Assembly: GCF_018336915.1 (NCBI RefSeq)
Contig: NZ_CP064923.1
Location: forward strand, 5,305,551-5,329,550
Direction of reading: 5' to 3'
From: Acaryochloris marina S15
GTDB lineage: Bacteria > Cyanobacteriota > Cyanobacteriia > Thermosynechococcales > Thermosynechococcaceae
Length of the DNA: 24,000 nt
The translations under genes were made by a program, and so were the position numbers. The notes under the pieces are model-generated. The model was not told the DNA's origin, ran no database searches, and saw only the letters and a program-made list of their open reading frames with translations. Positions 2,375-24,000 of the stretch are shown one piece after another (the first letter of the stretch is position 1; the number at the start of each line of letters is the position of its first letter).

Positions 2375-2375
2375 C

Positions 2376-8270: not shown

Positions 8271-8405
8271 AGGGAAGCAGATACAACGATCTAAAAGTCT
8301 AAATATACCTACGAGGAGATAGGGTTAACATTAACCTGAACCCCCCCTCTTTTTTCATCCCTTGGTATCCTGAAGACAGCGTTCAACAAACCCTAGAGCA
8401 TCGCA

Positions 8406-9599
8406 ATGACAGGAATCCAGCCAACAATTTGTATCTTAGGGGGTGGCTTTGGGGGGCTCTACACAGCGCTACGCTTGAGCCAGCTCCCGTGGAATGAGCT
8501 GAAACCCCAAATTTTTTTAGTGGATCAGAATGATCATTTCCTGTTTTCACCCTTACTGTATGAATTGGTTACAGGAGAACTCCAGTCTTGGGAAATTGCC
8601 CCACCCTACAGCGAACTCCTAGCCAATACAGAAGTGCGTTTTATTCAAAGCGCTGTTAAGGAGATTGATGTAGCTCAGCAGCAGGTTACCTTATCTGATC
8701 AATCCATCTCCTACGATCGCTTAGTCCTAGCACTAGGAGGAGAAACACCTCTACACCAAGTTCCTGGATCAGCGGAATATGCCCTGCCGTTTCGGACGGT
8801 GCAAGATGCCTATCGCCTTGAAGATCGATTACGAACCTTAGAAACATCCGAAGCGCCAAAAATTCGAGTGGCTGTGGTGGGGGCTGGCCCTAGTGGCGTG
8901 GAACTCGCCTGTAAGTTAGCGGATCGTTTAGGCGATCGCGGTCGGATACGGCTGATCGAACGGAATAATCAAATTCTCAAATCAGCCCCTGAATTCAATC
9001 AAGCAGCGGCCGAAAAAGCCTTAGAAAAACGACAAGTTTGGACGGATCTAGAGACCAGTATTGAATCCCTAGAAGCCAAGCAAATGACGCTTAGGTATAA
9101 GGATAAACCCGATACGCTCCCCGTAGACTTGGTATTGTGGACGGTGGGAACTGCGATCTCACAGCCGATTCAAGCCTTACCTCTTCTCCATAATGACCTC
9201 GGCCAACTCTTAACTGACCCAACCCTGCAGGTCCAAGACTCACCTAATATTTTCGCCTTGGGTGATTTAGCAGACTGTCGTGATCCGCAAGGAAAGCCGA
9301 ATCCCAAAACGGCCCAAGTGGCTATTCAACAAGCAGATTGTGTAGGGTGGAACCTGTGGGCTTCCTTAACCCAACGGCCATTACTGCCGTTTCACTACAC
9401 TCATCTGGGAGAAATGCTGACCTTAGGAGAAGACTCAGCTGCCATGTCTGGACTGGGCGTACAGCTCGATGGCCCCCTCGCATTTATGGCTCGACGTTTG
9501 ATTTATCTTTACCGCATGCCCACCCTCGACCATCAGCTTAAAATTGGGTTTAACTGGATGTTCAAACCTGTTTTATCCGCCCTCAACACAGCTAGATAG
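8406..9599 (+). CDS. ndbB: type II NADH dehydrogenase (NDH-2), NdbB/NDC1-like
   Basis: 397 aa. The N-terminal FAD fold is ICILGGGFGGLYTALRL and a second dinucleotide fold is VAVVGAGPSGVELA. The stretch LVDQNDHFLFSPLLYELVTGELQSWEIAP closely resembles the NDC1/NdbB subgroup as I recall it. Subgroup assignment is less certain than family. Confidence 0.8.
   Translation: MTGIQPTICILGGGFGGLYTALRLSQLPWNELKPQIFLVDQNDHFLFSPLLYELVTGELQSWEIAPPYSELLANTEVRFIQSAVKEIDVAQQQVTLSDQSISYDRLVLALGGETPLHQVPGSAEYALPFRTVQDAYRLEDRLRTLETSEAPKIRVAVVGAGPSGVELACKLADRLGDRGRIRLIERNNQILKSAPEFNQAAAEKALEKRQVWTDLETSIESLEAKQMTLRYKDKPDTLPVDLVLWTVGTAISQPIQALPLLHNDLGQLLTDPTLQVQDSPNIFALGDLADCRDPQGKPNPKTAQVAIQQADCVGWNLWASLTQRPLLPFHYTHLGEMLTLGEDSAAMSGLGVQLDGPLAFMARRLIYLYRMPTLDHQLKIGFNWMFKPVLSALNTAR
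8932..8939. repeat. HIP1 octamer GCGATCGC
   Basis: Exact match read in the sequence. Confidence 0.95.
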
Positions 9600-9784
9600 A
9601 AGCGGTAAAGTTGGTCCCTACAAGCAAGACAGGAAAGCAAATCAGAACGGTTCTGAGTTTGCGGTATAGTGATTGGGGTATAACTGGATTTATGCCATAG
9701 ATACACTCGTTTTTTTGCACGCAGTCGATTGATCTTTGTAGGTATCAGTATCTGCAATCAACACCCTATAGGAGTAATTTGGTT

Positions 9785-10393
9785 ATGTCGCAACACGAAG
9801 CGCATGAATGTTTACGGGTCGGCCAGTCCGCACCTGACTTTACAGCAACGGCTGTTTACGACCAAGAATTTAGTGAAGTCAAACTCTCCAATTACCGGGG
9901 TAAATACGTCGTCATCTTTTTCTATCCCCTTGATTTCACCTTCGTGTGTCCGACGGAAATTACAGCATTTAGTGATCGCTATGATGCCTTTAAGAACTTA
10001 AATACTGAAGTTCTAGGTATTTCTGTAGACAGCGAGTTCTCCCACTTAGCTTGGACCCAGACCGACCGCAAATCTGGAGGAGTCGGCGACCTCAACTACC
10101 CATTGGTTTCTGACATTAAAAAAGAAATTAGCACTGCCTATAACGTTCTAGATCCAGATGCTGGTGTTGCCTTAAGAGGTCTCTTTATCATTGATAAAGA
10201 AGGCGTTGTACAACATGCCACCATTAACAACCTCGCCTTCGGCCGTAACGTTGATGAAACCCTGCGCACCTTGCAGGCTATTCAACATGTTCAGTCTCAT
10301 CCCGATGAGGTTTGTCCAGCAGGCTGGCAGCCAGGGGATAAGACTATGAACCCTGATCCAGTGAAATCTAAGGTTTACTTTGAATCCATCTAA
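9785..10393 (+). CDS. typical 2-Cys peroxiredoxin (AhpC/BAS1-type)
   Basis: The peroxidatic Cys motif is [15 protein letters not shown] and the resolving Cys motif is [14 protein letters not shown] at 9771-9774 favours ATG 9785 over the track start TTG 9779. Confidence 0.93.
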
Positions 10394-10420
10394 CATATTT
10401 TAGGCAACATTTAAGTTGCA

Positions 10421-10467
10421 ACATAGCCCTCAAATACTCACAGAGCTTGCGTATTTGAGGGCTATGT
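10421..10467. terminator. perfect 17-bp stem / 13-nt loop hairpin between convergent genes
   Basis: ACATAGCCCTCAAATAC (10421-10437) pairs with GTATTTGAGGGCTATGT (10451-10467). It lies 28 nt after the prx stop and about 100 nt from the GT2 stop. There is no clear U-tract on either side. Confidence 0.55.
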
Positions 10468-10570
10468 CGTTGGCCCTTCATAGGTCATACAAGCCTTTGC
10501 TTTGCCGAGATTGCTAACCAGATTCAACAACCTGATAGATGGCAATATGCTTATCACCTGGCTTATGCCT

Positions 10571-11560
10571 TCAGTCTGTGGAATTTGTTTGGACAACTTC
10601 TCTTACCCGGTAGATAGGGCGACTTTGCGACTCATGGTAGGTTCGCATTAAGAGCTCTGCTAACAATCCAATTGAAAAGAGCTGAATCCCTGTCAATAAA
10701 AGCACAGCGGATAAAATCAGCAAGGGGCGGTCGGCAATCCCTTCACTCAAGCCGTACTTTAAAAACACTAAATAGCCACCCGTCAAGACCCCTAAGCTAG
10801 TAAAGGTAATCCCCAAAAGCCCAAAAACATGCATGGGACGAGTTAAAAAGGTTTTCATAAAGGATACGGTCAACAAATCCATGACCACCCGGAAAGTCCG
10901 ATCTAGTCCATACTTGCTTTGACCAAATTGGCGGGCATGATGACGCACAGGCAGCTCCGCAATTCTGGCACCTTCAATAAAAGCTAACGCCGGTAAAAAT
11001 CGGTGTAATTCTCCATACAGGTTCATATCAGCAATCAGCTCTGCTCGATAGGCCTTCAGGGAACAACCATAATCATGCAGCTTAACTCCTGTAATCCACC
11101 CAATCATCAAGTTGGCAATCTTAGATGGGAGCAAGCGCGTCAACGCAGCATCTTGTCGATCTTTACGCCAACCACTGACCAAATCGTATCCTTCATTCAT
11201 TTTGGCCAACAGCAATGGAATATCAGCTGGCTCATTTTGCAAGTCACCATCAAGGGTGACAAAAATCTCGCCGTGGGCATGGTTAAATCCAGCAGACATG
11301 GCAGCCGTTTGTCCATAATTTCGGCGCAACACAACTCCCCGTAGCCGGGGGTATAGATCCACTTGTTTTCTTAACAACTCAGTCGTACCATCTACCGAGC
11401 CATCATCTACACAGATTATTTCATAATTGACCTGAGTATCATTTAGGGTATCTGAAATCCTACAAATGAGATGCTCCAGGCTTTCGACCTCATTATAGAT
11501 GGGGATAATGACCGATATTTCGGGCTGAGTGATCTTGGCTTTTTGGTCTTGCATTAGCAT
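10571..11560 (-). CDS. family 2 glycosyltransferase, polyprenyl-phosphate sugar synthase type (ArnC/GtrB/DPM1-like)
   Basis: The N-terminus has ISVIIPIYNE...VDDGSVDGT and the DxD-type motif is LDGDLQNEP. Two C-terminal TM helices (VFGLLGITFTSLGVLTGGYLVFL and LLILSAVLLLTGIQLFSIGLLAELL) are typical of GtrB/ArnC. Confidence 0.85.
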   Translation of the reverse strand: MLMQDQKAKITQPEISVIIPIYNEVESLEHLICRISDTLNDTQVNYEIICVDDGSVDGTTELLRKQVDLYPRLRGVVLRRNYGQTAAMSAGFNHAHGEIFVTLDGDLQNEPADIPLLLAKMNEGYDLVSGWRKDRQDAALTRLLPSKIANLMIGWITGVKLHDYGCSLKAYRAELIADMNLYGELHRFLPALAFIEGARIAELPVRHHARQFGQSKYGLDRTFRVVMDLLTVSFMKTFLTRPMHVFGLLGITFTSLGVLTGGYLVFLKYGLSEGIADRPLLILSAVLLLTGIQLFSIGLLAELLMRTYHESQSRPIYRVREVVQTNSTD

Positions 11561-11837
11561 TGGTAATTTTATCTCACTCGCTATTCATTAACTCACTTCA
11601 GAGGACTTCATTCAAGAAAACTGCCAAGAACGGTATTTAGAGCATTTTTCGCAACTCAACGACCCAGATAAAGCTCAAATACCTTCTATAACTAACATTA
11701 TTTAGGACCAATACTCGCCTCTTCTAGAAGGTAAACTTGGGTAAAATACTTGAGTGCTAAATTCTTAGCAATACCAAATAACGTTCATTAAAGCCTTTTT
11801 ACCTGAAGGCCTAACACCTTTAGTATTAGAGAACCAC

Positions 11838-12422
11838 ATGAGGATTCTACTCTTAGCTCCACATCCATTTTTCCAGACCCGTGGTACACCGATCGCAGTT
11901 GATCTTATGCTCAGAGTGCTATCAGAGAGGGGAGATCAGGTTGATATGCTGACTTTCCCAGAAGGGGATGATGTTGTCTATGACAACGTGCGGATCTATC
12001 GGACTCCTAAATTACCATTTATTAAAAATATCAGTCCAGGTTTTTCTGGGAAAAAACTGGTCTGTGATGGTTTTATGCTGATCCAGGCTATTAACCTCTG
12101 TTTGAAGTATAAATATGATATCGTCCATTCGGTTGAAGAATCGGCTTTTATCGCGTTGGTTCTTAAAGTCGTGTTTAGAACACCCTATATCTATGATATG
12201 GACTCATCCCTGGCACAGCAAATGATTGAGAAATTTTCATTTCTCTCGTCTTTGCGCTTTCTCTTCAATGCTTTTGAAAGACTGGCCGTCCAACAAGCCA
12301 AAGTGGTGATACCTGTTTGCGAAACCTTATCTGAAGATATTCAAGTCTACAAACCGAAGCGAGTGGTTGTTTTACCAGACATTTCGCTTTTAGATTACTC
12401 TGCCCCGAATAAAAAGGCATAA
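11838..12422 (+). CDS. GT4 (GT-B) glycosyltransferase, N-terminal-domain half only
   Basis: The 194-aa product MRILLLAPHPFFQTRGTPIAVDLMLRVLSERGDQVDMLTF is typical of the GT4 acceptor domain. It ends where the inter-domain linker is expected. Confidence 0.7.
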   Translation: MRILLLAPHPFFQTRGTPIAVDLMLRVLSERGDQVDMLTFPEGDDVVYDNVRIYRTPKLPFIKNISPGFSGKKLVCDGFMLIQAINLCLKYKYDIVHSVEESAFIALVLKVVFRTPYIYDMDSSLAQQMIEKFSFLSSLRFLFNAFERLAVQQAKVVIPVCETLSEDIQVYKPKRVVVLPDISLLDYSAPNKKA

Positions 12423-12444
12423 CTGATGAATAGAATCATCTGCA

Positions 12445-13092
12445 GTGACGAAATCTCACCCGTCCAATATGGATAATATCAACGAAAATATCAGAGAGCA
12501 CTGTCAGCCTGATGAGCTCATTCTGATGTATGTCGGTAATTTAGAGCTTTATCAGGGGATTGATTTGCTGCTGGATGGCTTTAAAGTAGCTCAGAATCTT
12601 GCTCTTAATGTCCCTTTAAAGCTCGTCATTATCGGCGGTAAAGATGGCGACATTGCAAAATATAAGTTAAAAACGAAAAATATCGGCATTGACCACCAAG
12701 TTTTATTCTTAGGGCAACGCTCGGTAGAGAATCTAGGGTACTATCTCGCCCAAGCAGACATCCTGCTCTCTCCTCGCATTAAAGGAAGAAATACGCCAAT
12801 GAAATTGTATTCTTATCTTGATAGTGGTAAGCCCGTCCTCGCCACTGATTTGCCAACGCATAATTGGGTTCTGGATAATGAGGTGGCAGTGCTCAGTGCG
12901 CCTAACCCAGAAGCGTTTGCCCAGGGAATTATCCACCTAGCCAACCATCCTCAAATTAGACAAACCCTCGCAGTCGCCGCCAAGAAAATGGTGCAACAAA
13001 GGCACTCATTTTCTGCTTATAAGCAGCAGCTCAATAGCTTATATGATTCATTACAGTTAGAGTTCAACAATGCTGCCTCAATTGATCAATAA
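12445..13092 (+). CDS. GT4 (GT-B) glycosyltransferase, C-terminal nucleotide-sugar-binding half only
   Basis: LILMYVGNLELYQGIDLLL...ADILLSPRIKGRNTPMKLYSYLDSGKPVLATD matches the Glycos_transf_1 donor-binding domain. The start is GTG 12445 or ATG 12469. The frame differs from the N-terminal half. Confidence 0.7.
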   Translation: MTKSHPSNMDNINENIREHCQPDELILMYVGNLELYQGIDLLLDGFKVAQNLALNVPLKLVIIGGKDGDIAKYKLKTKNIGIDHQVLFLGQRSVENLGYYLAQADILLSPRIKGRNTPMKLYSYLDSGKPVLATDLPTHNWVLDNEVAVLSAPNPEAFAQGIIHLANHPQIRQTLAVAAKKMVQQRHSFSAYKQQLNSLYDSLQLEFNNAASIDQ

Positions 13093-13135
13093 TATGCTCT
13101 ATTTTCAGCCAAAGCGTTAGGATGCCACTGGTTTT

Positions 13136-14845
13136 ATGCAACGAAATCTAGAGGAATTATCCAACACTAAATTTGACGTCTTAGTCATAGGCGGCGGCAT
13201 TTATGGGGCTTGTGTTGCCTATGAAGCAATCCTAAGAGGCTTATCCGTTGCTTTAGTCGAAAAACAAGATTTTTGTGGGGCGACCTCAGCTAATAGCCTA
13301 AAAACCATCCATGGTGGCCTGCGATATCTACAGCATGCTGACTTTAAGCGGATGCGAGAGTCTATTTATGAGCGGCGCACATTAATGAAAATTGCGCCTC
13401 ACCTCGTGCATCCCCTGCCTGTGTTGGTGCCGACCTATGGGCATGGATTGAAAGGCATAGAAGCGATGACGGTGGCACTAAAAATTAATGATTGGGTGAG
13501 TTGCGATCGCAACCACGGATTGCCCGATCCTCAACAACATATCCCGGCTGGTCGAACAATATCTGCGACCGAATGCCTACAGACCATGCCAGGCATTTCC
13601 GCAGATGGCCTCACTGGGGGAGCTATTTTCCACGATGCTCAAGTGTTCAATTCAGAGCGGTTAGTGCTTGCCTATTTACAGTCTGCGACTCAGCTCGGGT
13701 TACAAGCTGCCAACTATCTTAAAGTCACTGATTTTTTACAAGATGGAGATACCATCCTTGGCGCTCAAGTGACGGATGCTCTAACTCAAAACACCTTTGA
13801 TATTCAAGCCAAAACAATCATTAATACCAGCGGGCCATGGATTAATGAAGTCCTGGGATTGCTAGATCAACCTCCTTCCTCTCATCAGCCCTTTGCATTA
13901 GCCATGAACCTAGTAACCCGATCGCTATTTGATCATGACTATGCCGTCGGTATCTATAGCAAGACTGACTACACAGATGAAGATGCCATTCTAAAGCGCA
14001 AGAACCGATTACTCTTTATCGCACCTTGGCAAGGGTGCTCTTTAGTGGGTACAACCTATTCACACTACTCTGATACCCCCGATCATTTATCTATACCCCA
14101 GCATGAAATCCAACACTTTTTGGATGACATCAACCATGCCTATCCACTCGCCAATCTAACGGCTCAGGATGTTTATTGGGTGCATCAAGGTCTACTCCCC
14201 AGCAGCCACTCCCCAGCAACCACTCATGTCCAATTAACCAAGCATTACCACATCCAAAATTATCAAGAAGAAGGCTTAAATGGCCTCATCTCCGTCACCG
14301 GAGTTAAATATACAACTGCTCGCAACGTCGCCATCCATGCAGTCGATACTGCAGCAGCGATGTTAAAGAGGCCAGTCCTTCCCTCTCAGTCTGCTCAGCA
14401 ACCCTTACATGGCGGAGCGATCGACAACCTAGATGACTTTTTGGACCAAGGGCATAACCAACTCAGCCGTATCCCTGATCATCCGTCTGTCCAGAATTTT
14501 CTCTACAATTACGGCACAGCCTATTCATCAGTTCTCAAACAGGTACAGCACGGGCAACGAGCAACGCCACGACTAGACCTTCTACAAGCACAAGTCACCT
14601 ATGCAATTGAGGAAGAAATGGCGCAAACCCTCAGTGACGTTATTTTTAGACGCACGGGTATCGGCGCTGCCCAAAAGCCTACCACTGCAGAGTTACAAAC
14701 TTGTGCAGATATTATGTCAAATACACTGTTATGGAATCAGTCTAGAGTAGAACAAGAGATCTCAGAAGTGACATCTAGGTGGTCTTGGTCTACTCCTAAA
14801 CCACCCTCTGTGGGGGAAAAAACAGCAACTATTCAGGGAAGATAG
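13136..14845 (+). CDS. FAD-dependent oxidoreductase of the glycerol-3-phosphate dehydrogenase/oxidase (GlpD/GlpO) family
   Basis: 569 aa. The FAD fold is FDVLVIGGGIYGACVAYEA and the GlpD-type motif is SANSLKTIHGGLRYL. ERRTLMKIAPHLVHPLP is also present. The substrate cannot be determined from sequence alone. Confidence 0.8.
   Translation: MQRNLEELSNTKFDVLVIGGGIYGACVAYEAILRGLSVALVEKQDFCGATSANSLKTIHGGLRYLQHADFKRMRESIYERRTLMKIAPHLVHPLPVLVPTYGHGLKGIEAMTVALKINDWVSCDRNHGLPDPQQHIPAGRTISATECLQTMPGISADGLTGGAIFHDAQVFNSERLVLAYLQSATQLGLQAANYLKVTDFLQDGDTILGAQVTDALTQNTFDIQAKTIINTSGPWINEVLGLLDQPPSSHQPFALAMNLVTRSLFDHDYAVGIYSKTDYTDEDAILKRKNRLLFIAPWQGCSLVGTTYSHYSDTPDHLSIPQHEIQHFLDDINHAYPLANLTAQDVYWVHQGLLPSSHSPATTHVQLTKHYHIQNYQEEGLNGLISVTGVKYTTARNVAIHAVDTAAAMLKRPVLPSQSAQQPLHGGAIDNLDDFLDQGHNQLSRIPDHPSVQNFLYNYGTAYSSVLKQVQHGQRATPRLDLLQAQVTYAIEEEMAQTLSDVIFRRTGIGAAQKPTTAELQTCADIMSNTLLWNQSRVEQEISEVTSRWSWSTPKPPSVGEKTATIQGR
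13503..13510. repeat. HIP1 octamer GCGATCGC
   Basis: Exact match read in the sequence. Confidence 0.95.
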
Positions 14846-14847
14846 CT

Positions 14848-15387
14848 ATGCCTTCTCCCATTGCGCACTCAGCAACTGCATATTTCCTATACAAAATCAC
14901 GCCCCAAAACAATCGCTCTATCCACTTAAACCGACATCGTTGGATTGATCTTGCCTACATCATTGTGATTGGAAACATCGCGGATTTAGACTTTATTCCT
15001 CATCTAATCTTAGAAGGCAGTTTTCATCGAGGTCCTTCCCATAGTCTCTGTATTGCCTTACTGATCAGTATAGGCTGTACCCTTATTTTCAAATGGCTCC
15101 ATCAATCAACCTTCCAACGATTGTTTTTACTCACGTTTGGAATCTATATCTCCCATCTTTTTCTGGATTTCTGGACAGCCGGGGGCTCTGGGATGAAGTT
15201 ACTTTGGCCGTTTACCAATGCTTTTATTAAATCGCCAATTGCTTTTTTTCCCAGTGTTAGGCATTCCGAAGGATTATTCTATCCAGGTCATATCGTCTTT
15301 ATGACCTTTGAGACCATTTACAGTGTCGTCCTGTTGGTATTCATTAATCGATATCAAAAATATAAACGACAGAATCAAAATACATAG
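14848..15387 (+). CDS. membrane-bound metal-dependent hydrolase, YdjM/YbcI (DUF457)-like
   Basis: 179-aa polytopic ORF with the motifs IAHS, HRGPSHS and HLFLDFWTAGGSGMKLLWPF. Its start lies 2 nt after the upstream stop, which suggests translational coupling. Confidence 0.7.
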   Translation: MPSPIAHSATAYFLYKITPQNNRSIHLNRHRWIDLAYIIVIGNIADLDFIPHLILEGSFHRGPSHSLCIALLISIGCTLIFKWLHQSTFQRLFLLTFGIYISHLFLDFWTAGGSGMKLLWPFTNAFIKSPIAFFPSVRHSEGLFYPGHIVFMTFETIYSVVLLVFINRYQKYKRQNQNT

Positions 15388-15422
15388 ACTCAAAAAAAAT
15401 ATTTAAACCCAGATAATACCTA

Positions 15423-16274
15423 GTGAATATGCACGACTCACAACCATCCCATATTCTTGTCGACGCCCATGTGCACCTGCATCACTGTTTTTCCTTACAA
15501 ACAGTGCTCGATTCAGCATTACAGAATTTCCAAGATAATGGCCAATACATAACGACCGGCTTACAGCATCAACTTGGGGTTCTATTCATCAATGAGATAG
15601 GGCACCAGAATTCATTTGCACAATTACGGGCAGACATATCTAACAAGCAAGCGATCACCCTTGATGACTGGACCTTAAACATCACACCTGAACAGGAATC
15701 ACTAGTCGCTCACCATTCCTCCAATCAGCAAATTCTGCTCATTGTAGGCCGTCAAATTGTTACCCACGAAAATATCGAAGTCTTATCACTATTCTCAAGT
15801 ACAACCATCCCAGAACAGCAATCCTTAGAGAAAACACTGCTAAATGTGAGTATGGCAGGAGGGTTAGCCGTCCTGCCCTGGGGATTTGGTAAATGGTTTG
15901 GTAAACGAGGCAAACTCGTGAATCAAGCGATTCAAGCCAGAGATCAAACTGAGATATTGATAGGCGACAACGGCAATAGACCCAGTTTTTGGATTAATCC
16001 AGTTTATCTAAATAAAGCTAAAAAAAAGGGCATCAAGGTATTACCAGGGACAGATCCCTTACCTTTAGCAACAGAAGTGCACCGTCCTGGGAGTTTCGGA
16101 TTCTACACCCAAGGGATCATTCAGGCCAACCATCCTGCAGCTTCTCTCAAACAAATACTGATCGATCCAAACACAAGCCTTCAACCCTATGGATCGCTGG
16201 AAACGCCATTTCGCTTCATTAATAATCAAATTCAATTTAGACTACAAAAGAAAAAACGCAACGCCGTTGAATAG
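15423..16274 (+). CDS. hypothetical protein, possible metal-dependent (PHP/amidohydrolase-like) phosphoesterase
   Basis: 283 aa. The N-terminal ILVDAHVHLH (DxHxH) and a later LPGTDPLP are reminiscent of PHP-type metal-ligand motifs. There is no firm family match. The start is GTG 15423 or ATG 15429. Confidence 0.35.
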   Translation: MNMHDSQPSHILVDAHVHLHHCFSLQTVLDSALQNFQDNGQYITTGLQHQLGVLFINEIGHQNSFAQLRADISNKQAITLDDWTLNITPEQESLVAHHSSNQQILLIVGRQIVTHENIEVLSLFSSTTIPEQQSLEKTLLNVSMAGGLAVLPWGFGKWFGKRGKLVNQAIQARDQTEILIGDNGNRPSFWINPVYLNKAKKKGIKVLPGTDPLPLATEVHRPGSFGFYTQGIIQANHPAASLKQILIDPNTSLQPYGSLETPFRFINNQIQFRLQKKKRNAVE

Positions 16275-16364
16275 TGTGTTCGAGCCCAAAACTGGTTGGA
16301 CCTGCAATCCCTGGAATTGCTGAACCAGATTCATTAGCTCAACCTCAAATGACAACACGCTAGA

Positions 16365-17144
16365 TTGAAAATCAGCCCGAGAAAACATAACGCTCTTTTA
16401 CTCATTAATCAGATGCAGCCGGAGAACAACTTTTTAGAAACAGCAGATATAGAAACATCTTCCGATGACTATGCTTCTCGTTTTCAAGGGCCTACAGGGG
16501 AGTGGCTGCTCCACGTTCAAGAGCAAGCCACCCTGTCTATGCTGACTCAATATCCCAACGCCAGCATTTTAGATGTGGGTGGAGGACATGGGCAGCTAAC
16601 CAAAGCCCTAATCAATAAAGAGTTTTCACTCACCGTTTTGGGTAGTAGCCTGTCTTGCCAAAACCGTATCAAAACTTATATTGACGCTGGACAGTGTGAG
16701 TTCAAGATGGGCGATGTTTTAAGCTTGCCTTACCCAGACAACGCCTTTGATATTGTGATTAGTTATCGGTTTCTAGCACATGTGAACCAGTGGCAAGCGT
16801 TCTTATCTGAGCTAGGGCGTGTTGCCAAAACAGCCGTGATCGTCGATTACCCCACCACTCGCAGCATTAACTACTTATCACCGTTATTATTCAAATTCAA
16901 AAAAGGCGTAGAGGGCAATACGCGAAAATTCATCTGTTACCAAGAGAAAGAGCTATTAGACTTTTGCAGCAGCATTGGGTTAGAGAAGGACAATCGTCAT
17001 CCACAATTTTTTTGGCCAATGGTTCTCCATCGAATGATGAAGCAACCCAAAGTCTCAGAACTCCTGGAGAATCCAGTGAAGAAGCTCGGTTTAACATACG
17101 TATGGGGCTCTCCAGTAATTACAAAATTCCAGAAAGTTCACTAA
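16365..17144 (+). CDS. class I SAM-dependent methyltransferase
   Basis: Motif I is ILDVGGGHGQ and the post-I/II region has FDIVISYRFLAH. The start is uncertain (TTG 16365 or ATG 16413). Confidence 0.8.
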   Translation: MKISPRKHNALLLINQMQPENNFLETADIETSSDDYASRFQGPTGEWLLHVQEQATLSMLTQYPNASILDVGGGHGQLTKALINKEFSLTVLGSSLSCQNRIKTYIDAGQCEFKMGDVLSLPYPDNAFDIVISYRFLAHVNQWQAFLSELGRVAKTAVIVDYPTTRSINYLSPLLFKFKKGVEGNTRKFICYQEKELLDFCSSIGLEKDNRHPQFFWPMVLHRMMKQPKVSELLENPVKKLGLTYVWGSPVITKFQKVH

Positions 17145-17201
17145 TCTATTCATTACTCGAATCCATCATTCATCTAACCATCAACATCCATTAAATACCG
17201 T

Positions 17202-18236
17202 ATGTCTTCAATAATGGCTCACGAGAACACAATCAGCCCTGGTCAACGTGTTTTAGTGACTGGTGCAACTGGCTATACAGGCAGCACCTTAGTCCAAAAA
17301 CTGCTGACCCAGAATGTAGAGGTTGTGGCGATAGCCCGCCAATCATCTGATCTAAGCCGTTGGCAAGATGCACCCATTCAATGGATTAAGGGAGATGTTT
17401 TTGATCCACGGCTTATTCAACAGGCGATGGAAGGAGTGAACTATATATTTCATATGGTCACCCCGTTTCGGGAAGCAAAGTCGTCTGATGATGTTTATTA
17501 CAATGTTCATGTTAAAAGTACACAGCTACTAGCGAAGGCAGCCTTAAACCAACCCGACTTCAAGCGCTTTGTCCATATATCGACGATAGGTGTCCATGGA
17601 CATATCGAAAATCCTCCTGCTGATGAGAACTATAGAACTTCTCCTGGAGATTTATACCAATCCACCAAATTAGAAGGCGAAATATGGATCAAGCAATTTG
17701 GTGCTGAAACTGGACTACCCGTAACCATCATCAGACCGGCAGGCATTATTGGGCCTGGTGAAAAACGGCTGTTAAAAATATACAAGATGGTTTGTTCTGG
17801 CTTGGTACCAGCCATTGGTAATGGGAGTAATCTTCTGCATTTAATTCACGTCGATGATTTGACCAACTGTTTTCTGCTGGCCTCTCAACATCCGAATGCA
17901 GTGGATGAAGTCTTCATTTGTGGAAATCAAGAATCGATTTCTTTCAAAGAAATGGTCAATTTGATCTCCGCGTGTTATCAGAAAAAAGCCACTCTTCTAC
18001 CACTCCCAGCTGCGCCCTTATTCCTATTGGGAGACATGCTTGAGTTTATTTGTAAGCCTCTAAATATTGAGCCTCCCATTTACCGTAGAAGACTTGCCTT
18101 TTACACCAAAGATCGTGCATTCAATGTTAACAAGCTTAAATCGAAACTAGGTTTTGTGCCGCGACATTCCAATGAGCAGTGTGTTGCTGAACTAGCACAA
18201 TGGTATTTACAAGAAGGGTGGACAACAGTTAGCTAA
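17202..18236 (+). CDS. NAD-dependent epimerase/dehydratase (extended SDR)
   Basis: The Rossmann motif is VLVTGATGYTGSTL and the catalytic YxxxK is YQSTK. At 344 aa the length is typical of sugar-nucleotide epimerases/reductases. Confidence 0.85.
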   Translation: MSSIMAHENTISPGQRVLVTGATGYTGSTLVQKLLTQNVEVVAIARQSSDLSRWQDAPIQWIKGDVFDPRLIQQAMEGVNYIFHMVTPFREAKSSDDVYYNVHVKSTQLLAKAALNQPDFKRFVHISTIGVHGHIENPPADENYRTSPGDLYQSTKLEGEIWIKQFGAETGLPVTIIRPAGIIGPGEKRLLKIYKMVCSGLVPAIGNGSNLLHLIHVDDLTNCFLLASQHPNAVDEVFICGNQESISFKEMVNLISACYQKKATLLPLPAAPLFLLGDMLEFICKPLNIEPPIYRRRLAFYTKDRAFNVNKLKSKLGFVPRHSNEQCVAELAQWYLQEGWTTVS

Positions 18237-18327
18237 ATTCATATCAATAGAAAAAGATTATAGCCAATATTACTCAAATATAATCCTCAGGAATCAGTTC
18301 AATAAACGTAAAACAATATATTTTTTA

Positions 18328-20184
18328 GTGATGCTAGATGCTGATATAAAGTCTCAACTAAGAGAAGCTCAGACTCAAACTGATATTTCTATAATATTGA
18401 GGAATATTCACTCCACAGACTTGTCAAGCTCAGATTACTTTTTTATTAGTAGAGTACTGAACAAAAAACATTCTGAATCTTGTTTAAAAATCGCCTACTT
18501 TTCGAATTACACGATTGTTCCTCTGCCTTCTTTTATTGAAGTACAGAGCGCTTTTCATAATATTGAAGTTAGGAGCTATATAGGAGAGTACAATCAGCAC
18601 TATCAGGAAATACTAAATCCCAATTCATCAGCTTTAAGCTTCAGCCCTGATATCGCTTTCTTACTCTTATCTCTACATGAGCTATGCCCTTCTATCCTGT
18701 ACAGTTTTACAAGCCTTACTAATCAGCAAAAACTAGATCAAAAAAACATTATTCTGGAGCATATCTTTAACTGGGTCAATCTCACTATAGACAAAACGAG
18801 TGCTACAGTTTTTGTCAGTGACTTCTTACAACCCACTTTTCCATCTCTTGGAATCGCGGATAGCCAGCAAAGTTATAGCGAACATGAATTCTATATTGAG
18901 CTAAATCTAGCCTTAAAAAAAGAATTTAGAGAAAATCCTAGAGTCTATGTTATTGATATAGATAAGTTAGCTTCCAGATATGGAAAAGAAGATGCTGTAA
19001 ACTCCAAAATGTTTTTTATGGCCAAAGTTCTTTGGCATGAAAAATTTTTACCCACAATTGCTCAAGAGATCATTCGATATCTCACCAGTTATTTGGGTCG
19101 AACTAAAAAATGTTTAGTTTTAGATCTTGACAACACATTATGGGGTGGAGTGGTTGGTGAGGAGGGAATAGAAGGCGTAAAGATTGGCAATGGCGATCCT
19201 ATTAGCGAAGCCTATCTTGCTTTTCAATATAAAATTTCTGCTTTGAAAAACCGAGGCATAATTCTTGGTATATGCAGTAAAAACAATCAAGCAGATGCTT
19301 TAGAAGTCTTTGACAAAAAAGTCGAAATGCCACTAAACATTCAAGACTTTTCAGCAATCGAAATCAACTGGGAACCCAAATATATCAATATCAAGAACAT
19401 CGCTCAGAAGTTAAATATTGGAACTGACAGCATCGTCTTTATTGACGATAATCCTGTAGAGTGTAGTCTTGTTTCTCAAGCACTTCCTGAAGTAACAACT
19501 GTCCAATTACCGAAAGACCCAGCTCTTTACGCTGATGTCCTCGACAAAATTCTTGTATTTGAAAAGTTTAATATCCTAAGCGATGATCTCAACAAAGTAC
19601 AGCAGTATTCGCAAAATGAACAGCGTAAAGAAGAGAAAGAACGAATCGGAGATCTCAACTCTTATCTACATAGCTTAGAGACGAAAGTTAAAATCTGCTT
19701 AGCTGCCGATCAAGATTTACCAAGGGTTCACCAACTCTTTTCTAAAACGAATCAATTCAACCTAACCACTATTCGTTACTCGATGTCCAACATTGAGGAA
19801 TTTCATAAGAATGAGCATGATTCGATTATAATTACCTCTGTTCAAGATAAATTTGGCGATTTGGGCACTGTAGGATTATGCTTACTCAAAAACCAAGAGC
19901 ATCAACTCCTGATTGACAGCTTTATACTGAGTTGTCGGGCGATGGGACGCGGCATTGAGACAGCATTGCTCAACTACATCAAGCGAGAATATCTTTTAGG
20001 TGACCGGTCGCTAAAGCTCATAGGGTCTTACATTCCCACAAAAAAGAACATTCCGACTAGAGACTTTTTAGAATCGCAAGGATTTGTTCTAGTATCAAAA
20101 GGTACTCAGGGAGAAAAATATTATGAGGTGCACTCCGATGATGCATTAGAAGTCTCTTGTCCCTGGATTAACATTATTGATTAG
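18328..20184 (+). CDS. FkbH-like HAD-IIIC family protein (N-terminal unknown domain + HAD phosphatase domain + C-terminal GNAT-like/FkbH domain)
   Basis: The HAD motifs are LVLDLDNTLWGGVVGEEG (I), ICSKNN (II) and K...VFIDDNPVE (III/IV). The C-terminus has TNQFNLTTIRY and ILSCRAMGRGIE. The likely start is ATG 18331. Confidence 0.8.
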   Translation: MMLDADIKSQLREAQTQTDISIILRNIHSTDLSSSDYFFISRVLNKKHSESCLKIAYFSNYTIVPLPSFIEVQSAFHNIEVRSYIGEYNQHYQEILNPNSSALSFSPDIAFLLLSLHELCPSILYSFTSLTNQQKLDQKNIILEHIFNWVNLTIDKTSATVFVSDFLQPTFPSLGIADSQQSYSEHEFYIELNLALKKEFRENPRVYVIDIDKLASRYGKEDAVNSKMFFMAKVLWHEKFLPTIAQEIIRYLTSYLGRTKKCLVLDLDNTLWGGVVGEEGIEGVKIGNGDPISEAYLAFQYKISALKNRGIILGICSKNNQADALEVFDKKVEMPLNIQDFSAIEINWEPKYINIKNIAQKLNIGTDSIVFIDDNPVECSLVSQALPEVTTVQLPKDPALYADVLDKILVFEKFNILSDDLNKVQQYSQNEQRKEEKERIGDLNSYLHSLETKVKICLAADQDLPRVHQLFSKTNQFNLTTIRYSMSNIEEFHKNEHDSIIITSVQDKFGDLGTVGLCLLKNQEHQLLIDSFILSCRAMGRGIETALLNYIKREYLLGDRSLKLIGSYIPTKKNIPTRDFLESQGFVLVSKGTQGEKYYEVHSDDALEVSCPWINIID

Positions 20185-20196
20185 GATAAATAAGTT

Positions 20197-20436
20197 ATGG
20201 CTAAAAGTGGTGTCCAAGAAAGAGTTAAACTGGTTTTTTCTGACGTTCTAGACATCGATCTGCAAACAATTTCAGATGATCTTGGCCCTGACAACTGTGA
20301 TAGCTGGGATTCTATGAATAATCTACGGCTCATTACAGCTTTAGAAGAAGAGTTCAGTATTAATTTCTCAATGGAAGAGATCTCTTCAATGGTTGATATT
20401 AGCCGTGCAATTGAGCTAATTGAAAGCAAAAGCTAG
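20197..20436 (+). CDS. acyl carrier protein
   Basis: 79 aa and acidic. The phosphopantetheine attachment motif is WDSMNNLRLITALEEEF (DSxxxL). The gene starts 12 nt after the FkbH-like stop. Confidence 0.85.
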   Translation: MAKSGVQERVKLVFSDVLDIDLQTISDDLGPDNCDSWDSMNNLRLITALEEEFSINFSMEEISSMVDISRAIELIESKS

Positions 20437-20472
20437 ATAGCGCTTATTCAATCCTCAGATTTGACCTAATAT

Positions 20473-21024
20473 GTGATTTTCAAGGACTATGCTGTAATGG
20501 ATGCTGGTAAAATTGTCCGTAGGTTTTTAGTTCCATCACCTGCAATTACCCTATATTATCTAATAAAGTTTGGGGCTAAAATCAGTCCTAAAGCTGAGGT
20601 TGAACTCAGTTCATTTTTCACAATTGGTCGCCAATCTGTTATCAGTTCATTTACTAAGATTAAGGCATCTGAAGGGCCACTAAAAATTGGTTCACATGTT
20701 TCTATTTCAACGGGATGCTTTATCAGTTCCCATACGGGTGGACTTGAAATTGGTGATTACTGCTTAGTGGGTCCAAATGTAACAATAGTAGGCAATAATT
20801 ATAACTATAGTAAAATTGATGTTCCCTTAGAACAACAAGGAATTATATCTAAAGGAATTAGGATTGGTAGCAATGTTTGGCTAGGTGCGGGTGTATGCGT
20901 TCTCGATGGAGTCACAGTCGGAGATAATTGTATTATCACCCCTAATTCAGTTATCTCGTCAAATATTCCTTCCGGTGCGATCGCAAGTGGGCAACCAGCT
21001 AAAGTTATTTTTAAACGTAGGTAG
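20473..21024 (+). CDS. hexapeptide-repeat (left-handed beta-helix) acyl/acetyltransferase
   Basis: Tandem hexapeptide repeats are present: IGDYCLVGPNVTIVG, IGSNVWLGAGVCVLDGVTVGDNCIITPNSVI. This is WcaF/LacA-like. The start is GTG 20473 or ATG 20497. Confidence 0.85.
   Translation: MIFKDYAVMDAGKIVRRFLVPSPAITLYYLIKFGAKISPKAEVELSSFFTIGRQSVISSFTKIKASEGPLKIGSHVSISTGCFISSHTGGLEIGDYCLVGPNVTIVGNNYNYSKIDVPLEQQGIISKGIRIGSNVWLGAGVCVLDGVTVGDNCIITPNSVISSNIPSGAIASGQPAKVIFKRR
20977..20984. repeat. HIP1 octamer GCGATCGC
   Basis: Exact match read in the sequence. Confidence 0.95.
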
Positions 21025-21217
21025 TGCGCTACAGAGAAATTGCGGTTCGGCAATATCAAATTCATTTCTATCATCACTCTTTTCTGCGATCTAGACTCAT
21101 TCTATTAGTTCCAATATCAGTTGCAATAGGCTAGGTAATTTACCCAAAAAATCTATTATTAGATTCACGAAATATGAAGAATTTATATCAAGTTTCTTTA
21201 TCCTCTAAGTTATTAGT

Positions 21218-22216
21218 ATGTACTCATCTAGCATAAGAAATACTAATCCTATTTTCATCTTCGGATCGGCACGATCAGGAACTTCTTTATTGAGTCGAAT
21301 CATTAATTCTCACCCTAGAATTTCAGTTCCATTTGAATCTCATTTATACGACACTTTTTATCCCTGGCTGAAGTATTACGGCGATTTAAATCTCTCTAAA
21401 AATAGAGAACGCTTAGTCGATGATATTTTAAGTATTGAATGCATGAGAGATTGGAGTCCTAGACCTGGTCGAGAATGTGTTTTAGCAGCAGTCTCACAGA
21501 ATAATTTTGCTGGTATCGTAGATGGATTAATCCGGTCATGGTCTATCAGCCAGGGGAAAAAAAGATGGGGAGAAAAAACACCAGCGCATGCCTTTTTTTG
21601 GCGTGAGATCTTAAATGATTTTCCTAATTGCAAGGTTATTCACATCGTGCGTGATGGCCGCGACTCATCCTTGTCTTTAAAAAATGCTCGTTTTGGCCCC
21701 AAACATTATTATCATTTAGCAAAAGTATGGGTGAAATATTTACAGGTTATTGAAAGCTTAAAATCCAAGATAAATAGTAGCTCTTTTTATGAGATACGCT
21801 ACGAAGATTTGTTGTCTAATACCAATGCTAAATCTAGAGAGATATGTGATTTTCTTGAGGAAGATTTTTCTGAAGAAATGCTCAGTTTCTATAACAATAA
21901 TAATCCATATCCAACTGACAAAGATAATCTCAAAAACCTAGCGAAACCTATCATATCTAGCAATTCCAATAAATGGAAGAGTAGTATGTCTCCTAGAGAT
22001 ATAAGAATATTTGAGTCAGTCGCTGGTCCTTATTTAGAGGCATATGGTTATGAAACAGTAATGAGTCATCCTACAATCTCTTCTATAGAAGAGTGGTTAA
22101 TTAAGTATTTTGAGCATCCTCCCAAAAAGATTTTATCTATGATCAAGAATAGGAAAGGTCATATTGATGGTTTGCGTAGGTTAGCTATTTATACTCGTCT
22201 TGTTATTACTCAATAG
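21218..22216 (+). CDS. PAPS-dependent sulfotransferase family protein
   Basis: The 5'-PSB loop is IFGSARSGTSLL and the 3'-PB motif is HIVRDGRDSSLS. Length is 332 aa. Confidence 0.8.
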   Translation: MYSSSIRNTNPIFIFGSARSGTSLLSRIINSHPRISVPFESHLYDTFYPWLKYYGDLNLSKNRERLVDDILSIECMRDWSPRPGRECVLAAVSQNNFAGIVDGLIRSWSISQGKKRWGEKTPAHAFFWREILNDFPNCKVIHIVRDGRDSSLSLKNARFGPKHYYHLAKVWVKYLQVIESLKSKINSSSFYEIRYEDLLSNTNAKSREICDFLEEDFSEEMLSFYNNNNPYPTDKDNLKNLAKPIISSNSNKWKSSMSPRDIRIFESVAGPYLEAYGYETVMSHPTISSIEEWLIKYFEHPPKKILSMIKNRKGHIDGLRRLAIYTRLVITQ

Positions 22217-22289
22217 TGTTATGCCCGTCATATATTACTGTTGTGTTTTTGAAACATTGAGATTTAAAAATATATACTGAATAACAAGA

Positions 22290-23780
22290 ATGAGTAAGTT
22301 CATTAAGGGCGCTGGTATTTCATTTATTGGGCAACTAGGAAGTACTGGCTTAAAATACCTCACCCAAGTTACTCTAGCCTGGATTTTTGGAGCTGAAGTG
22401 TTTGGTTTATACACCCTGGGTCTCGTTTTCTATCAATTTTGTGACTTATTTGCTCGGTTAGGCTTAGAGTTTGGAGCTGTACGTTATGTTGCCATCAACA
22501 CGACTGCAGAAAGCCGCCCCAACTTAAAAGGGGTTCTACTGACCATACTAGGTCTCCCATTCATATTCGGATGTGTTCTTGGAGGCATACTATTTTATTG
22601 GTCTAGTTTTATTGCCACCGATATTTTTCAAAAACCAGACTTAGCTGTTGTTCTACAGATATTTTCTCTCGCTATACCTGTCGGCGCTAGCATGACCACA
22701 GGCTCGTTTGCAACAACAGGGTTTCAAACTACTTTATATAGAGTCTTAGTATTTGACTTAATTGTGCCATTCACCAATCTATTCTTCGCGATTGGTTTAG
22801 GGCTAATTGGATTCAAGCTATTGGGAGCATCCTTAGCTTGGTTAATAGCATTAATAGTTGGTTTAATACTTATTTTTTATTTTATTTGCAATCTATTTCC
22901 AGATATTTTTTCAAGCAAAGTAAAGCCAGTTTTCAATCTAAAAGAAATCCTTAGTTTCTCTTTACCATTATCTTTTGGAACATTTGTTTGGTTACTTTTA
23001 ATTTGGACTGATATCTTGATGCTAGGCTACTATAGCAGCGCATCAGAAGTCGGGATCTATCGAGCTGCTTCACAAACTGCTTTTTTGATGATCCTTTTTG
23101 ATCGTTCTCTCATCACAATTTTTGTGCCTACAATTGCAAGCTTATTTAATCAAGAGAAACTGTCAGAGGCTAATCAACTATATACAACTTCTACTCGTTG
23201 GAATTTTATCCTAACTTTACCGCTGTTTATCATACTAACTATTTCTAGCCAACATATACTCAAAATTTATGGCTCTGATTTTCAATCTGCATGGATGATT
23301 CTAATTATCTTGGCAACAGGACAATTAACAAGATCAGGGGGCGGTGGCTTATGCATGCATATGTTAGCCATGTCAGGAAACCAATATTTAAAGCTATATG
23401 GTGATATTGCTCTAGCCACTACAAATATAACACTTAATTTTTTGCTCATTCCCTTATGGGGACCACTAGGAGCATCTATTGCTACTGCTTCTAGCATGGC
23501 TGGAATTAATTTAGTGCGCGTGATTCAAGTCAAGTACGTTCTAGGAGTTTATCCATATTCATTTCGTGATTTCAAACTCATTATTTGTGGTGTAGTGGCT
23601 GCTTTGTCTGGCGTCTTAATTCAGTATTTTTTGCATGACATATTTTATTTACTGCTAATTGCAATATCTGCACTTGTCATGATTATTACATACAGCCTGA
23701 TTCTTTTTTTTACAGCACTCAATGAAGATGACAAACTACTTATCAATCAGTATAAAATAAAGCTTAAAAACTTTCTATAA
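22290..23780 (+). CDS. wzx: Wzx-type oligosaccharide/polysaccharide flippase (MOP superfamily)
   Basis: 496 aa with about 12-14 hydrophobic segments. The N-terminus MSKFIKGAGISFIGQLGSTGLKYLTQVTLAWIFGAEVFGLY is typical of Polysacc_synt proteins. Confidence 0.75.
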   Translation: MSKFIKGAGISFIGQLGSTGLKYLTQVTLAWIFGAEVFGLYTLGLVFYQFCDLFARLGLEFGAVRYVAINTTAESRPNLKGVLLTILGLPFIFGCVLGGILFYWSSFIATDIFQKPDLAVVLQIFSLAIPVGASMTTGSFATTGFQTTLYRVLVFDLIVPFTNLFFAIGLGLIGFKLLGASLAWLIALIVGLILIFYFICNLFPDIFSSKVKPVFNLKEILSFSLPLSFGTFVWLLLIWTDILMLGYYSSASEVGIYRAASQTAFLMILFDRSLITIFVPTIASLFNQEKLSEANQLYTTSTRWNFILTLPLFIILTISSQHILKIYGSDFQSAWMILIILATGQLTRSGGGGLCMHMLAMSGNQYLKLYGDIALATTNITLNFLLIPLWGPLGASIATASSMAGINLVRVIQVKYVLGVYPYSFRDFKLIICGVVAALSGVLIQYFLHDIFYLLLIAISALVMIITYSLILFFTALNEDDKLLINQYKIKLKNFL

Positions 23781-24000
23781 GATGAAATTTGCGAAAGAAA
23801 GAATACTATTTCAACAGTACTAATTCAAGAAGCCAGCAACTAAGATAAGTTGTGACAAGGAATGACTTCTATCCCTTATCGGGTAGTTTTATTATATGCT
23901 TTCGCTCATGAGCAAGTCTCAAAATATCTTTTGAATCATTGATTAAATACTTCCTGGTTAGTTCACCGTATAAATTGAGTCAATAGCACAACATAAAGCG

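Follow-up and report, generated by a model that had tools for sequence, protein, structure and literature searches.

Does an abrupt fall in G+C content mark the edge of newly acquired DNA? The question is raised by a 24,000-nt stretch of Acaryochloris marina S15 (contig NZ_CP064923.1, positions 5,305,551 to 5,329,550; hereafter the window), in which base composition changes directly after an SDR gene that ends at 18236, and the five genes that follow encode an FkbH-like protein, an acyl carrier protein (ACP), a left-handed beta-helix (LbH) acyltransferase, a sulfotransferase and a Wzx-type flippase. A first-pass annotation of the window had taken this block (18237-24000) for a horizontally acquired or fast-evolving, serotype-like decoration and export cassette, appended to a higher-GC operon. 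Our analysis points to an older history. We consider it probable that the region from 10.5 to 25.6 kb is one ancient, widely conserved surface-glycoconjugate cluster, the 3' half of which was replaced long ago, and which provides for glyceroylation, a separate sulfation and Wzx export. The cluster would comprise an ArnC-like glycosyltransferase of family GT2, a split GT4 glycosyltransferase, a GlpD-like oxidoreductase, a YdjM protein, a PHP-like phosphoesterase, a methyltransferase, the SDR, the acylation module, the sulfotransferase, Wzx and an RGL11-like protein. The step at 18237 would be the start of its 3' zone, low in G+C in the genus and variable in content between strains. Most likely the low G+C goes back to an old event in which a homologous segment from a cyanobacterium of lower G+C took the place of the 3' half; this event would be older than the split of the sampled Acaryochloris lineages, with exchange going on ever since.

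Base composition and synteny of the low-GC block

Computed over the window, G+C is 0.446 for 1-18236 and 0.359 for 18237-24000, and in a change-point scan (100-nt bins, 11838-24100) the best-supported division falls at 18238 (t = 8.1), where the SDR gene ends in its stop codon and where the drop had been called by eye. In 500-nt sliding windows G+C is 0.32-0.40 past 18.25 kb and 0.39-0.51 across 8.4-18 kb, and the lowest 5764-nt segment within 1-18236 still has 0.428, above the block. The hand counts of the first pass had the direction right but overstated the contrast, since the real 5-95% ranges of 60-nt lines are 0.27-0.47 in the block versus 0.34-0.55 in 8.4-14.8 kb. When G+C and its third-codon-position component (GC3) were profiled along the contig, the five block genes (GC 0.35-0.38, GC3 0.26-0.34) all fell below all 24 other contig genes (GC 0.460 +/- 0.034, GC3 0.443 +/- 0.046) in both measures (z = -2.2 to -4.0; Mann-Whitney p = 8e-6). 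The seven genes directly upstream of the block have GC3 of 0.38-0.47. The fall affects codon positions 1, 2 and 3 and, relative to the adjacent operon, amounts to about 6 points by gene (0.430 to 0.369). It is located in a short intergenic spacer (18237-18327), in which no terminator-like site was found. The other end of the low-GC block lies near 24150, in the part of the contig from the public assembly that reaches 9.8 kb past the window; this contig is identical to the window over the shared 11.7 kb. About 2.5% of the equal-sized windows in a 100-kb portion of the A. marina plasmid pREB1 are equally low in G+C: the block lies in the tail of the composition distribution, yet it is not unique within the genus. 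Depletion of HIP1 sites was dropped as a further signal. One of the five sites in the window (743, 1120, 8932, 13503, 20977) does lie in the block, as counted before, but the block makes up 24% of the window and 1.2 sites are expected by length, so the count is uninformative.

The locus was compared with those of A. marina MBIC11017 and of three further Acaryochloris contigs (L006, L007, L008). Window positions 8418-23788 are collinear with MBIC11017 at 86% nucleotide identity, and the SDR is 91% identical. The gene order NDH2, Prx, GT2 (minus strand), GT4N, GT4C, GlpD, YdjM, a conserved protein ('unk'), SDR, FkbH, ACP, LbH is kept in all four relatives; the methyltransferase is present in three and missing from L008. 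In each of the four, G+C drops at the SDR/FkbH junction (from 0.42-0.43 to 0.37-0.39), and the block proteins have 83-96% amino-acid identity in these genomes. The L008 allele is divergent despite near-identical flanks (59% identity for FkbH, 36% for the SDR). Because the same genes and the same drop occur in four other Acaryochloris genomes, the step is old and genus-wide, not a recent add-on. Comparison of sister strains had been proposed as the check on the cassette, and its synteny with the step in four of four goes against that idea, the exception being L007, in which the sulfotransferase-Wzx part is swapped.

Beyond the genus, the block genes do not look appended: they seem to form a single ancient cluster together with the genes upstream, because they follow the same SDR in other taxa. 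With MT for methyltransferase and ST for sulfotransferase, Okeania carries GT4-GlpD-YdjM-unk-MT-MT-SDR-FkbH-ACP-(MaoC dehydratase/ketoreductase)-LbH-GT2, with Wzx nearby and uniformly low GC, and a Desulfuromonadales genome has PMT_2-GT2-x-GT4-unk-DAO-SDR-FkbH-ACP-LbH. Moorena and Leptothoe have GT4N-GT4C-GlpD-...-SDR-LbH(256 aa)-ST-Wzx, with RGL11 next in Moorena, and show neither FkbH/ACP nor a GC step; their ST, Wzx and RGL11 orthologues equal their neighbours in GC. Wzx orthologues of 49-51% identity occupy the same position in Moorena, Leptothoe and Hyella. The sulfotransferase, Wzx and RGL11 thus appear as canonical members of one conserved cluster, of which the acylation module would be the exchangeable part.

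Between strains the locus is a mosaic. At the nucleotide level L008 is 95-100% identical to the window at 8.4-13.8 kb, 62-76% identical or unalignable at 13.8-25.8 kb, and 89-97% identical past 26.1 kb; its flank proteins are 98-100% identical to those of the window, and inside the locus identity is 79% for GlpD, 63% for YdjM, 49% for unk, 36% for the SDR, 59% for FkbH, 53% for ACP, 78% for LbH, 74% for the sulfotransferase and 70% for Wzx. L006 is 85-93% identical to the window, rising to 92-98% from ~14.1 kb, with dS of 0.42-0.64 in the flanks versus 0.09-0.24 from the methyltransferase to Wzx. On these alignments the window appears to hold a recombination tract of ~10-12 kb, running from 13.8 to 24-26 kb, that it has in common with one lineage, set in flanks that it has in common with another; the left edge of the tract would lie inside the GlpD-like gene, and the G+C step would be internal to it. 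The boundary had been set at 18236; the inter-strain recombination edge is near 13.8 kb instead. In L007 a GT4, a deacetylase, an unrelated Wzx and RGL11 (GC 0.28-0.42) replace the sulfotransferase-Wzx part, and L006, L008 and MBIC11017 diverge in gene content after Wzx. The low-GC zone falls together with the strain-variable zone from the SDR to a downstream Crp gene, whatever genes occupy it. The description 'serotype-like' therefore stands, given the conserved flanks, allelic replacement and strain-to-strain variation in gene content seen with L008 and L007. The description 'fast-evolving' does not, as all genes are under purifying selection (dN/dS 0.02-0.21), those of the block have dN/dS of 0.04-0.20, and their dN is in the range of the upstream genes.

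Table 1. Features of the cluster in the window and the contig extension (kb-scale coordinates are those of the window)
Feature	Position	Strand	Remarks
ArnC-like polyprenyl-phosphate glycosyltransferase (GT2)	10571..11560	-	NF007986 230 bits, under its cut-off
GT4 glycosyltransferase, N-terminal ORF	11838-12422	+	split gene
GT4 glycosyltransferase, C-terminal ORF	12445-13092	+	split gene
GlpD-like FAD oxidoreductase	13136..14845	+	holds left edge (~13.7-14.1 kb) of inter-strain recombination tract
YdjM-family membrane protein	14848..15387	+
Conserved protein (unk), no Pfam family	15423..16274	+	predicted PHP-type metal phosphoesterase fold
Class I SAM methyltransferase	16365..17144	+
Extended SDR (HpnA-like sugar epimerase/dehydratase family)	17202..18236	+	final gene ahead of the G+C step
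Spacer, 91 nt	18237..18327		GC 0.22; site of the G+C step
FkbH-like glyceryl loader (predicted)	18328..20184	+	HAD-IIIC phosphatase + C-terminal Cys domain
Putative acyl carrier protein, 79 aa	20197..20436	+	sub-threshold ACP profile matches; WDSMNNL serine motif
LbH (hexapeptide) acyltransferase, 175-aa type	20473..21024	+	likely start ATG 20497
PAPS-dependent sulfotransferase	21218..22216	+	PF13469 103.2 bits (cut-off 27)
Wzx-type flippase, 496 aa	22290..23780	+	PF01943 79.4 bits (cut-off 28.2)
Terminator-like hairpin	23869-23886		3' of Wzx
RGL11_C/FG-GAP protein	24151-25566		contig extension; GC 0.43

Predicted acylation, sulfation and export

The five gene identities given in the first pass hold by profile scores and motifs, that of the putative carrier protein by its serine motif and its place ahead of LbH. 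The FkbH-like protein, for which ATG 18331 is the likely start (617 aa), scores 288.4 bits with TIGR01686 (cut-off 146.65) and 78.9 bits with the HAD-IIIC model TIGR01681 (cut-off 35.75). Its HAD motif I (DxDxT; D266/D268/T270) and C536 in SCRxxGRG are invariant in 15 homologues of 42-83% identity, and its N-terminal half matches PDB 3slr (B. fragilis BF1531). Its family and the carrier protein gene beside it make it likely that it forms a glyceryl-S-carrier protein from 1,3-bisphosphoglycerate. The D-S motif of the carrier protein is kept in 11 of 11 orthologues. The LbH protein scores 59.7 bits with PF00132 (cut-off 27) and 83.6 bits with a WbbJ-like model. In the sulfotransferase both cofactor motifs are intact, as had been read from the sequence: the 5'-phosphosulfate-binding (R19 S20 G21 T22) and 3'-phosphate-binding (R145 D146 G147 R148 D149 S153) residues show no variation among 16 orthologues.

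From these families and the conserved gene neighbourhood, a mechanism of four steps is most likely. FkbH would dephosphorylate 1,3-bisphosphoglycerate and load the glyceryl group on the 79-aa carrier protein; the 175-aa LbH would pass the glyceroyl to a sugar linked to a nucleotide or lipid, at one of its hydroxyl or amino groups; the sulfotransferase, with 3'-phosphoadenosine 5'-phosphosulfate (PAPS), would sulfate the glycan itself and not the glyceroyl; and Wzx would flip the decorated lipid-linked unit. In Moorena and Leptothoe a 256-aa LbH without carrier protein occupies the LbH position. Two decorations, ACP-dependent acylation and sulfation, on a Wzx-exported unit had been proposed before, and we keep this as the best reading. 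As to the upstream enzymes, the split GT4, the GlpD-like enzyme, the PHP-like phosphoesterase and the SDR suggest reactions in which the substrate is a phosphorylated polyol or sugar, and the ArnC-like GT2, together with the PMT_2 GT-C and LPG_synthase_TM proteins of relatives, suggests a polyprenyl-phosphate-linked step.

A separate observation concerns the sulfotransferase gene of the type strain MBIC11017, in which a G/A homopolymer tract (L002 ~14350, corresponding to window ~21553-21563) has lost 1 nt, so that the reading frame shifts; the deletion lies directly ahead of the conserved KKRWGEKTP motif. The site reads GGGGAAAAAAA in the window, GGGAAAAAAA in MBIC11017 and GGGAAAAAAAA in L006. 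The frameshift may have made the gene a natural null allele, or it may reflect a slippage-prone site or a sequencing error.

The acylation genes and the sulfotransferase are distributed far more widely than the genus. The FkbH family has >7,900 matches, ~45% identical across phyla. FkbH-ACP-LbH stands amid other glycan genes in a Thermoanaerobaculia contig and, in a gammaproteobacterial contig, is followed by MaoC/ketoreductase (KR) and an orthologous sulfotransferase. Sulfotransferase orthologues are ~60% identical in many cyanobacteria and ~53% in Gammaproteobacteria. Among 80 metagenome loci, sulfotransferases that are at least 41% identical and have enough flank adjoin unk/GT4/GlpD/SDR and/or ACP/LbH, in shuffled orders and with few exceptions; the more distant ones have none of that neighbourhood. 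In four of the metagenome loci (L013, L018, L049, L010) sulfotransferase orthologues occur in glycan clusters with sigma-54 activators, Bac_transf priming transferases, DUF5060-GH5 hydrolases and PMT_2 GT-C enzymes, which is typical of Proteobacteria and not of cyanobacteria; Bac_transf and Wzy_C genes were found only in the related proteobacterial loci.

Across phyla, in 16 of 19 loci the gene next upstream of the 175-aa LbH encodes an ACP. Loci that lack FkbH have a DltA-like amino-acid adenylation enzyme in its place, as in L013 (8981-10528) and L049 (8970-10499), where the cluster, in its proteobacterial form, combines it with the carrier protein-LbH-sulfotransferase trio. Okeania and a gammaproteobacterium have a MaoC-dehydratase/ketoreductase fusion inserted beside FkbH-ACP. 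By analogy with polyketide synthase (PKS) loading modules, this fusion would turn the glyceryl- into a lactyl-carrier protein. A Desulfuromonadales locus (L011, 11585-12356) has a sharp step inside the module, with GC of 0.49 for FkbH, 0.31 for the adjacent ACP and 0.345 for LbH, which suggests that the carrier protein-LbH pair is itself laterally exchanged. A wider reading, which we put forward tentatively, is that the carrier protein and the 175-aa LbH form a cross-phylum plug-in module for glycan acylation with interchangeable loaders, plugged into a conserved sulfated-glycoconjugate pathway. FkbH would yield glyceroyl, FkbH with MaoC/KR lactyl, and the DltA-like enzyme aminoacyl groups, and the pathway (ArnC-like GT2, PMT_2 GT-C, split GT4, GlpD-like, PHP-like, SDR, sulfotransferase) would extend over many cyanobacteria and Proteobacteria. 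If so, sulfated surface glycans would not be peculiar to cyanobacteria among the bacteria.

Several observations weigh against an ancient cluster with a replaced 3' half and the chemistry proposed for it. In a donor search for the low-GC half, no lineage stood out as nearer to the 3' half than to the 5' half. Identities to Okeania, Moorena and Leptothoe are alike for both halves (43-66% versus 44-60% amino acid) and so give no proof of separate ancestry. The FkbH family is FYMINK-rich in all hosts examined, so that part of the GC1/GC2 drop is protein composition, and the G+C baseline consists of 34 kb of the own contig and 100 kb of a plasmid of another strain. On the side of function, the carrier protein falls under the cut-offs of curated ACP profiles (PF00550 18.4 bits versus 20.8; NCBIfam ACP models ~30 bits versus 66-106), and the closest solved LbH structures are the acetyl-CoA-using maltose and galactoside O-acetyltransferases. 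With no Wzy, chain-length or priming enzyme in the locus, the product may be a polymer, a single-unit modification or a glycolipid.

It is unlikely that no transfer was involved at all and that the step arose by AT-biased drift and weak codon selection in poorly expressed accessory genes, together with the AT-rich amino acids of Wzx and the FYMINK-rich FkbH. The FYMINK and GARP fractions of FkbH are indeed equal in Acaryochloris and in low-GC Okeania, ACP, LbH and sulfotransferase genes are often somewhat below their neighbours' GC in unrelated bacteria, and surface-polysaccharide loci commonly lie under the genome level. But since the Moorena and Leptothoe orthologues of ST, Wzx and RGL11 match their neighbours' GC, these families do not seem to be intrinsically low-GC; moreover, GC3 falls by ~12 points at a single point and not gradually, and the recombination tracts mean that this locus exchanges DNA. 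Drift keeps some weight because the donor search singled out no lineage and the two halves are about as far from other cyanobacteria as each other. The idea that protein composition accounts for the whole step was rejected: it covers part of the FkbH GC1/GC2 drop and fails on GC3 and on the step-free Moorena and Leptothoe clusters.

Two further alternatives concern the chemistry. We regard it as quite improbable that the LbH protein is an ordinary acetyl-CoA O-acetyltransferase, with the FkbH-ACP glycerate going elsewhere, for example to a primer or lipid anchor. The acetyl-CoA dependence of its nearest solved homologues and its resemblance to WbbJ would fit such a role. However, the ACP gene is directly upstream of the 175-aa subtype in the 16 of 19 loci mentioned above with any loader, the 256-aa LbH of ACP-less clusters is only 31-40% identical to it, and no other acyl-ACP-using enzyme is conserved beside FkbH-ACP. 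Very improbable, in our view, is a single composite decoration, in which the glyceryl group would receive both a sulfate from the sulfotransferase (while on the carrier protein or once transferred) and a methyl group from the methyltransferase, to give O-methyl-O-sulfo-glycerate. There is a cyanobacterial precedent in the FkbH-PCP-OMT-ST loading modules of the nonribosomal peptide synthetases (NRPS) for suomilide (BslA) and dysinosin (DysB); the closest solved structures of the sulfotransferase include the ACP-substrate sulfotransferases of an olefin synthase (4gox) and CurM (4gbm); and the tight ACP-LbH-ST order recurs in many loci. Against this stand the 60%-identical sulfotransferases at the same position in the Moorena, Leptothoe and Hyella clusters, which have neither FkbH nor carrier protein, as well as four metagenome loci (L018, L036, L038, L044) that have the sulfotransferase and no ACP detectable by hidden Markov model. 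Tyrosylprotein sulfotransferases also score equal to the PKS ones. It is because orthologues sit in clusters without FkbH or ACP that we take the glycan as the probable sulfate acceptor; sulfated glycerate, formed on glyceryl-ACP, was ruled out as the leading interpretation on the same ground.

Flanking genes and borders

Upstream of the step, the ArnC-like GT2 is 70-73% identical in Moorena and Leptothoe and is a conserved cluster member. The GT4 split consists of a TAA stop and a frame change and is identical in five of five Acaryochloris genomes; the gene is likewise split in Moorena and Leptothoe and is fused (447 aa) in Okeania. Because both halves have dN/dS of 0.03-0.11, the split GT4 looks like a functional two-subunit enzyme, not a pseudogene. 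For the unk protein, the AlphaFold model (pLDDT 89.6) has 7rty, 2anu, 5zb8 and 7ug9 as top Foldseek matches, D14/H16/H18 are invariant, and the 590 homologues include members found in the cluster across cyanobacteria and other phyla.

Downstream, the locus had been expected to continue past 24000 with Wzy, Wzc and a phosphoglycosyltransferase, and this did not turn out to be so. Only one further cluster gene (RGL11/FG-GAP) follows, after which the contig continues with a Crp-family regulator, a dynamin-like GTPase, an FGE-sulfatase-family gene, purF and purL, with GC of 0.41-0.50. Among the scanned window proteins and the genes called up to 10 kb beyond there is no Wzy, polysaccharide co-polymerase (Wzz/Wzc), outer-membrane polysaccharide exporter (Wza) or priming phosphoglycosyltransferase. 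The locus thus has Wzx, lacks all of these, and is not a complete Wzx/Wzy-dependent exopolysaccharide locus. The FGE-sulfatase-family gene (PF03781; L001 17911-19071, corresponding to window 30200-31360) lies 6 kb downstream of the sulfotransferase locus.

In the window and the contig extension, neither integrase nor transposase nor tRNA gene was found at the block borders. Promoter-like sites (22 versus 28 expected) and terminator-like sites (9 versus 6.5) show no enrichment. We noticed a 34-nt direct repeat, 74% identical with a 10-nt exact seed, at 18326-18359 and at L001 13641-13674 (corresponding to 25930-25963). One copy overlaps the FkbH start codon; the other is ~135 nt upstream of Crp, at the right edge of the strain-variable zone, and turned up in none of the other four Acaryochloris loci. 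Such a pair arises in 1% of shuffles; it may be a junction remnant or chance and is too weak to build on.

It is highly improbable that a decoration and export cassette bounded at 18236 was recently added by horizontal transfer to an existing higher-GC operon, in this strain or in few: the sharp step exactly at the SDR stop, the fall of GC3 along with GC1 and GC2, and the repeat pair would fit it, but the presence of cassette and step alike in each of the four further Acaryochloris genomes, the FkbH-ACP-LbH or LbH-ST-Wzx order after the same SDR in Okeania, Desulfuromonadales, Moorena and Leptothoe, the borders without integrase, transposase or tRNA, and a recombination edge at 13.8 and not at 18.2 kb leave this reading largely refuted, as judged by synteny. 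A recently acquired genomic island was likewise rejected as a candidate, the composition being deviant but the block being present in MBIC11017, L006, L007 and L008 and its borders free of mobility genes.

Elsewhere in the window, collinearity with MBIC11017 ends at 3559 and restarts at 8418, and the 4.9 kb between are missing from that strain. This part (3560-8417) holds a DUF4915 gene (3834-4901, minus strand), a spacer of ~0.9 kb with 32% GC (~4900-5792) and an RTX/HemolysinCabind repeat protein of 825 aa (5793-8270); it is a second, separate variable segment with a low-GC stretch of its own. The only tRNA gene is tRNA-Ser(GCT) at 3201-3291.

Relation to known systems

Sulfated bacterial polysaccharides are wanted as biomaterials, and synechan is the sole cyanobacterial pathway that has been dissected genetically; the Acaryochloris locus is of a different, widely conserved cluster type. 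Its acylation step is seemingly exchangeable (acetyl-type LbH, FkbH/ACP glyceroyl, DltA-like aminoacyl), and alleles have been swapped among Acaryochloris strains. MBIC11017 with its frameshifted sulfotransferase, L007 without the sulfotransferase-Wzx part and L008 with its divergent allele offer natural comparisons between gene and glycan chemistry. The locus also serves as a caution, as a sharp G+C step alone proves neither recent acquisition nor a functional boundary.

In the open-access literature we found no paper on the FkbH-ACP-LbH triad in a glycan cluster or on this cluster type, nothing on Acaryochloris sulfotransferases, and a tie of FkbH to polysaccharide, lipopolysaccharide or capsule genes only through mention of the Campylobacter jejuni locus. 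Wzx-type clusters with sulfotransferases are reported to be common in cyanobacteria, and 13 sulfotransferases are counted in A. marina MBIC11017 (PMC8205485, supplementary file 3). The xss locus for synechan in Synechocystis sp. PCC 6803 resembles the Acaryochloris cluster in combining glycosyltransferases, a PAPS sulfotransferase (PF13469/PF00685) and Wzx (PMC8205485), but it has its own Wzy, polysaccharide co-polymerase and priming glycosyltransferase and no FkbH/ACP/LbH genes. The Acaryochloris cluster in turn adds the GlpD-like and PHP-like proteins, the split GT4 and the ArnC-like GT2, and its relatives carry PMT_2 GT-C and LPG_synthase_TM.

The acylation module is close to the FkbH-carrier systems of PKS/NRPS pathways (BslA for suomilide, DysB for dysinosin), with which it shares the HAD-IIIC and Cys domains, a small putative carrier protein and the proposed glyceryl-S-carrier chemistry. 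Unlike those, the Acaryochloris FkbH is a stand-alone protein of 617 aa with an extra N-terminal domain like BF1531 (3slr), it lies in a glycan cluster, and its partner is LbH and not a ketosynthase or condensation (KS/C) domain. For glyceroylation of a glycan, the nearest chemical precedent, compared by description, is the flagellin sugar of Campylobacter jejuni 11168, 5-(2,3-di-O-methylglyceroyl)amino-pseudaminic acid, which combines a glycerate-derived acyl group with an FkbH-domain gene, cj1302, in the glycosylation locus (PMC3068675, PMC7099621). There, however, cj1302 is linked to the function by its locus, the sugar is a nonulosonic acid on a protein, the pathway is another one, and neither sulfation nor Wzx is involved.

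The locus also has much in common with O-antigen and capsule serotype loci as generally known: conserved flanks (Prx/GT2 and Crp), divergent alleles, variable 3' content, low GC, and recombination tracts that extend into the flanking part of the cluster. It is unlike them in being mostly conserved across cyanobacterial orders and even phyla, in having no polymerase or chain-length genes, and in that the GC step lies inside the exchanged tract. The Acaryochloris block is thus of an ordinary kind, a low-GC end at which a surface-glycan locus varies, and it brings a modular acylation system that is uncharacterised.

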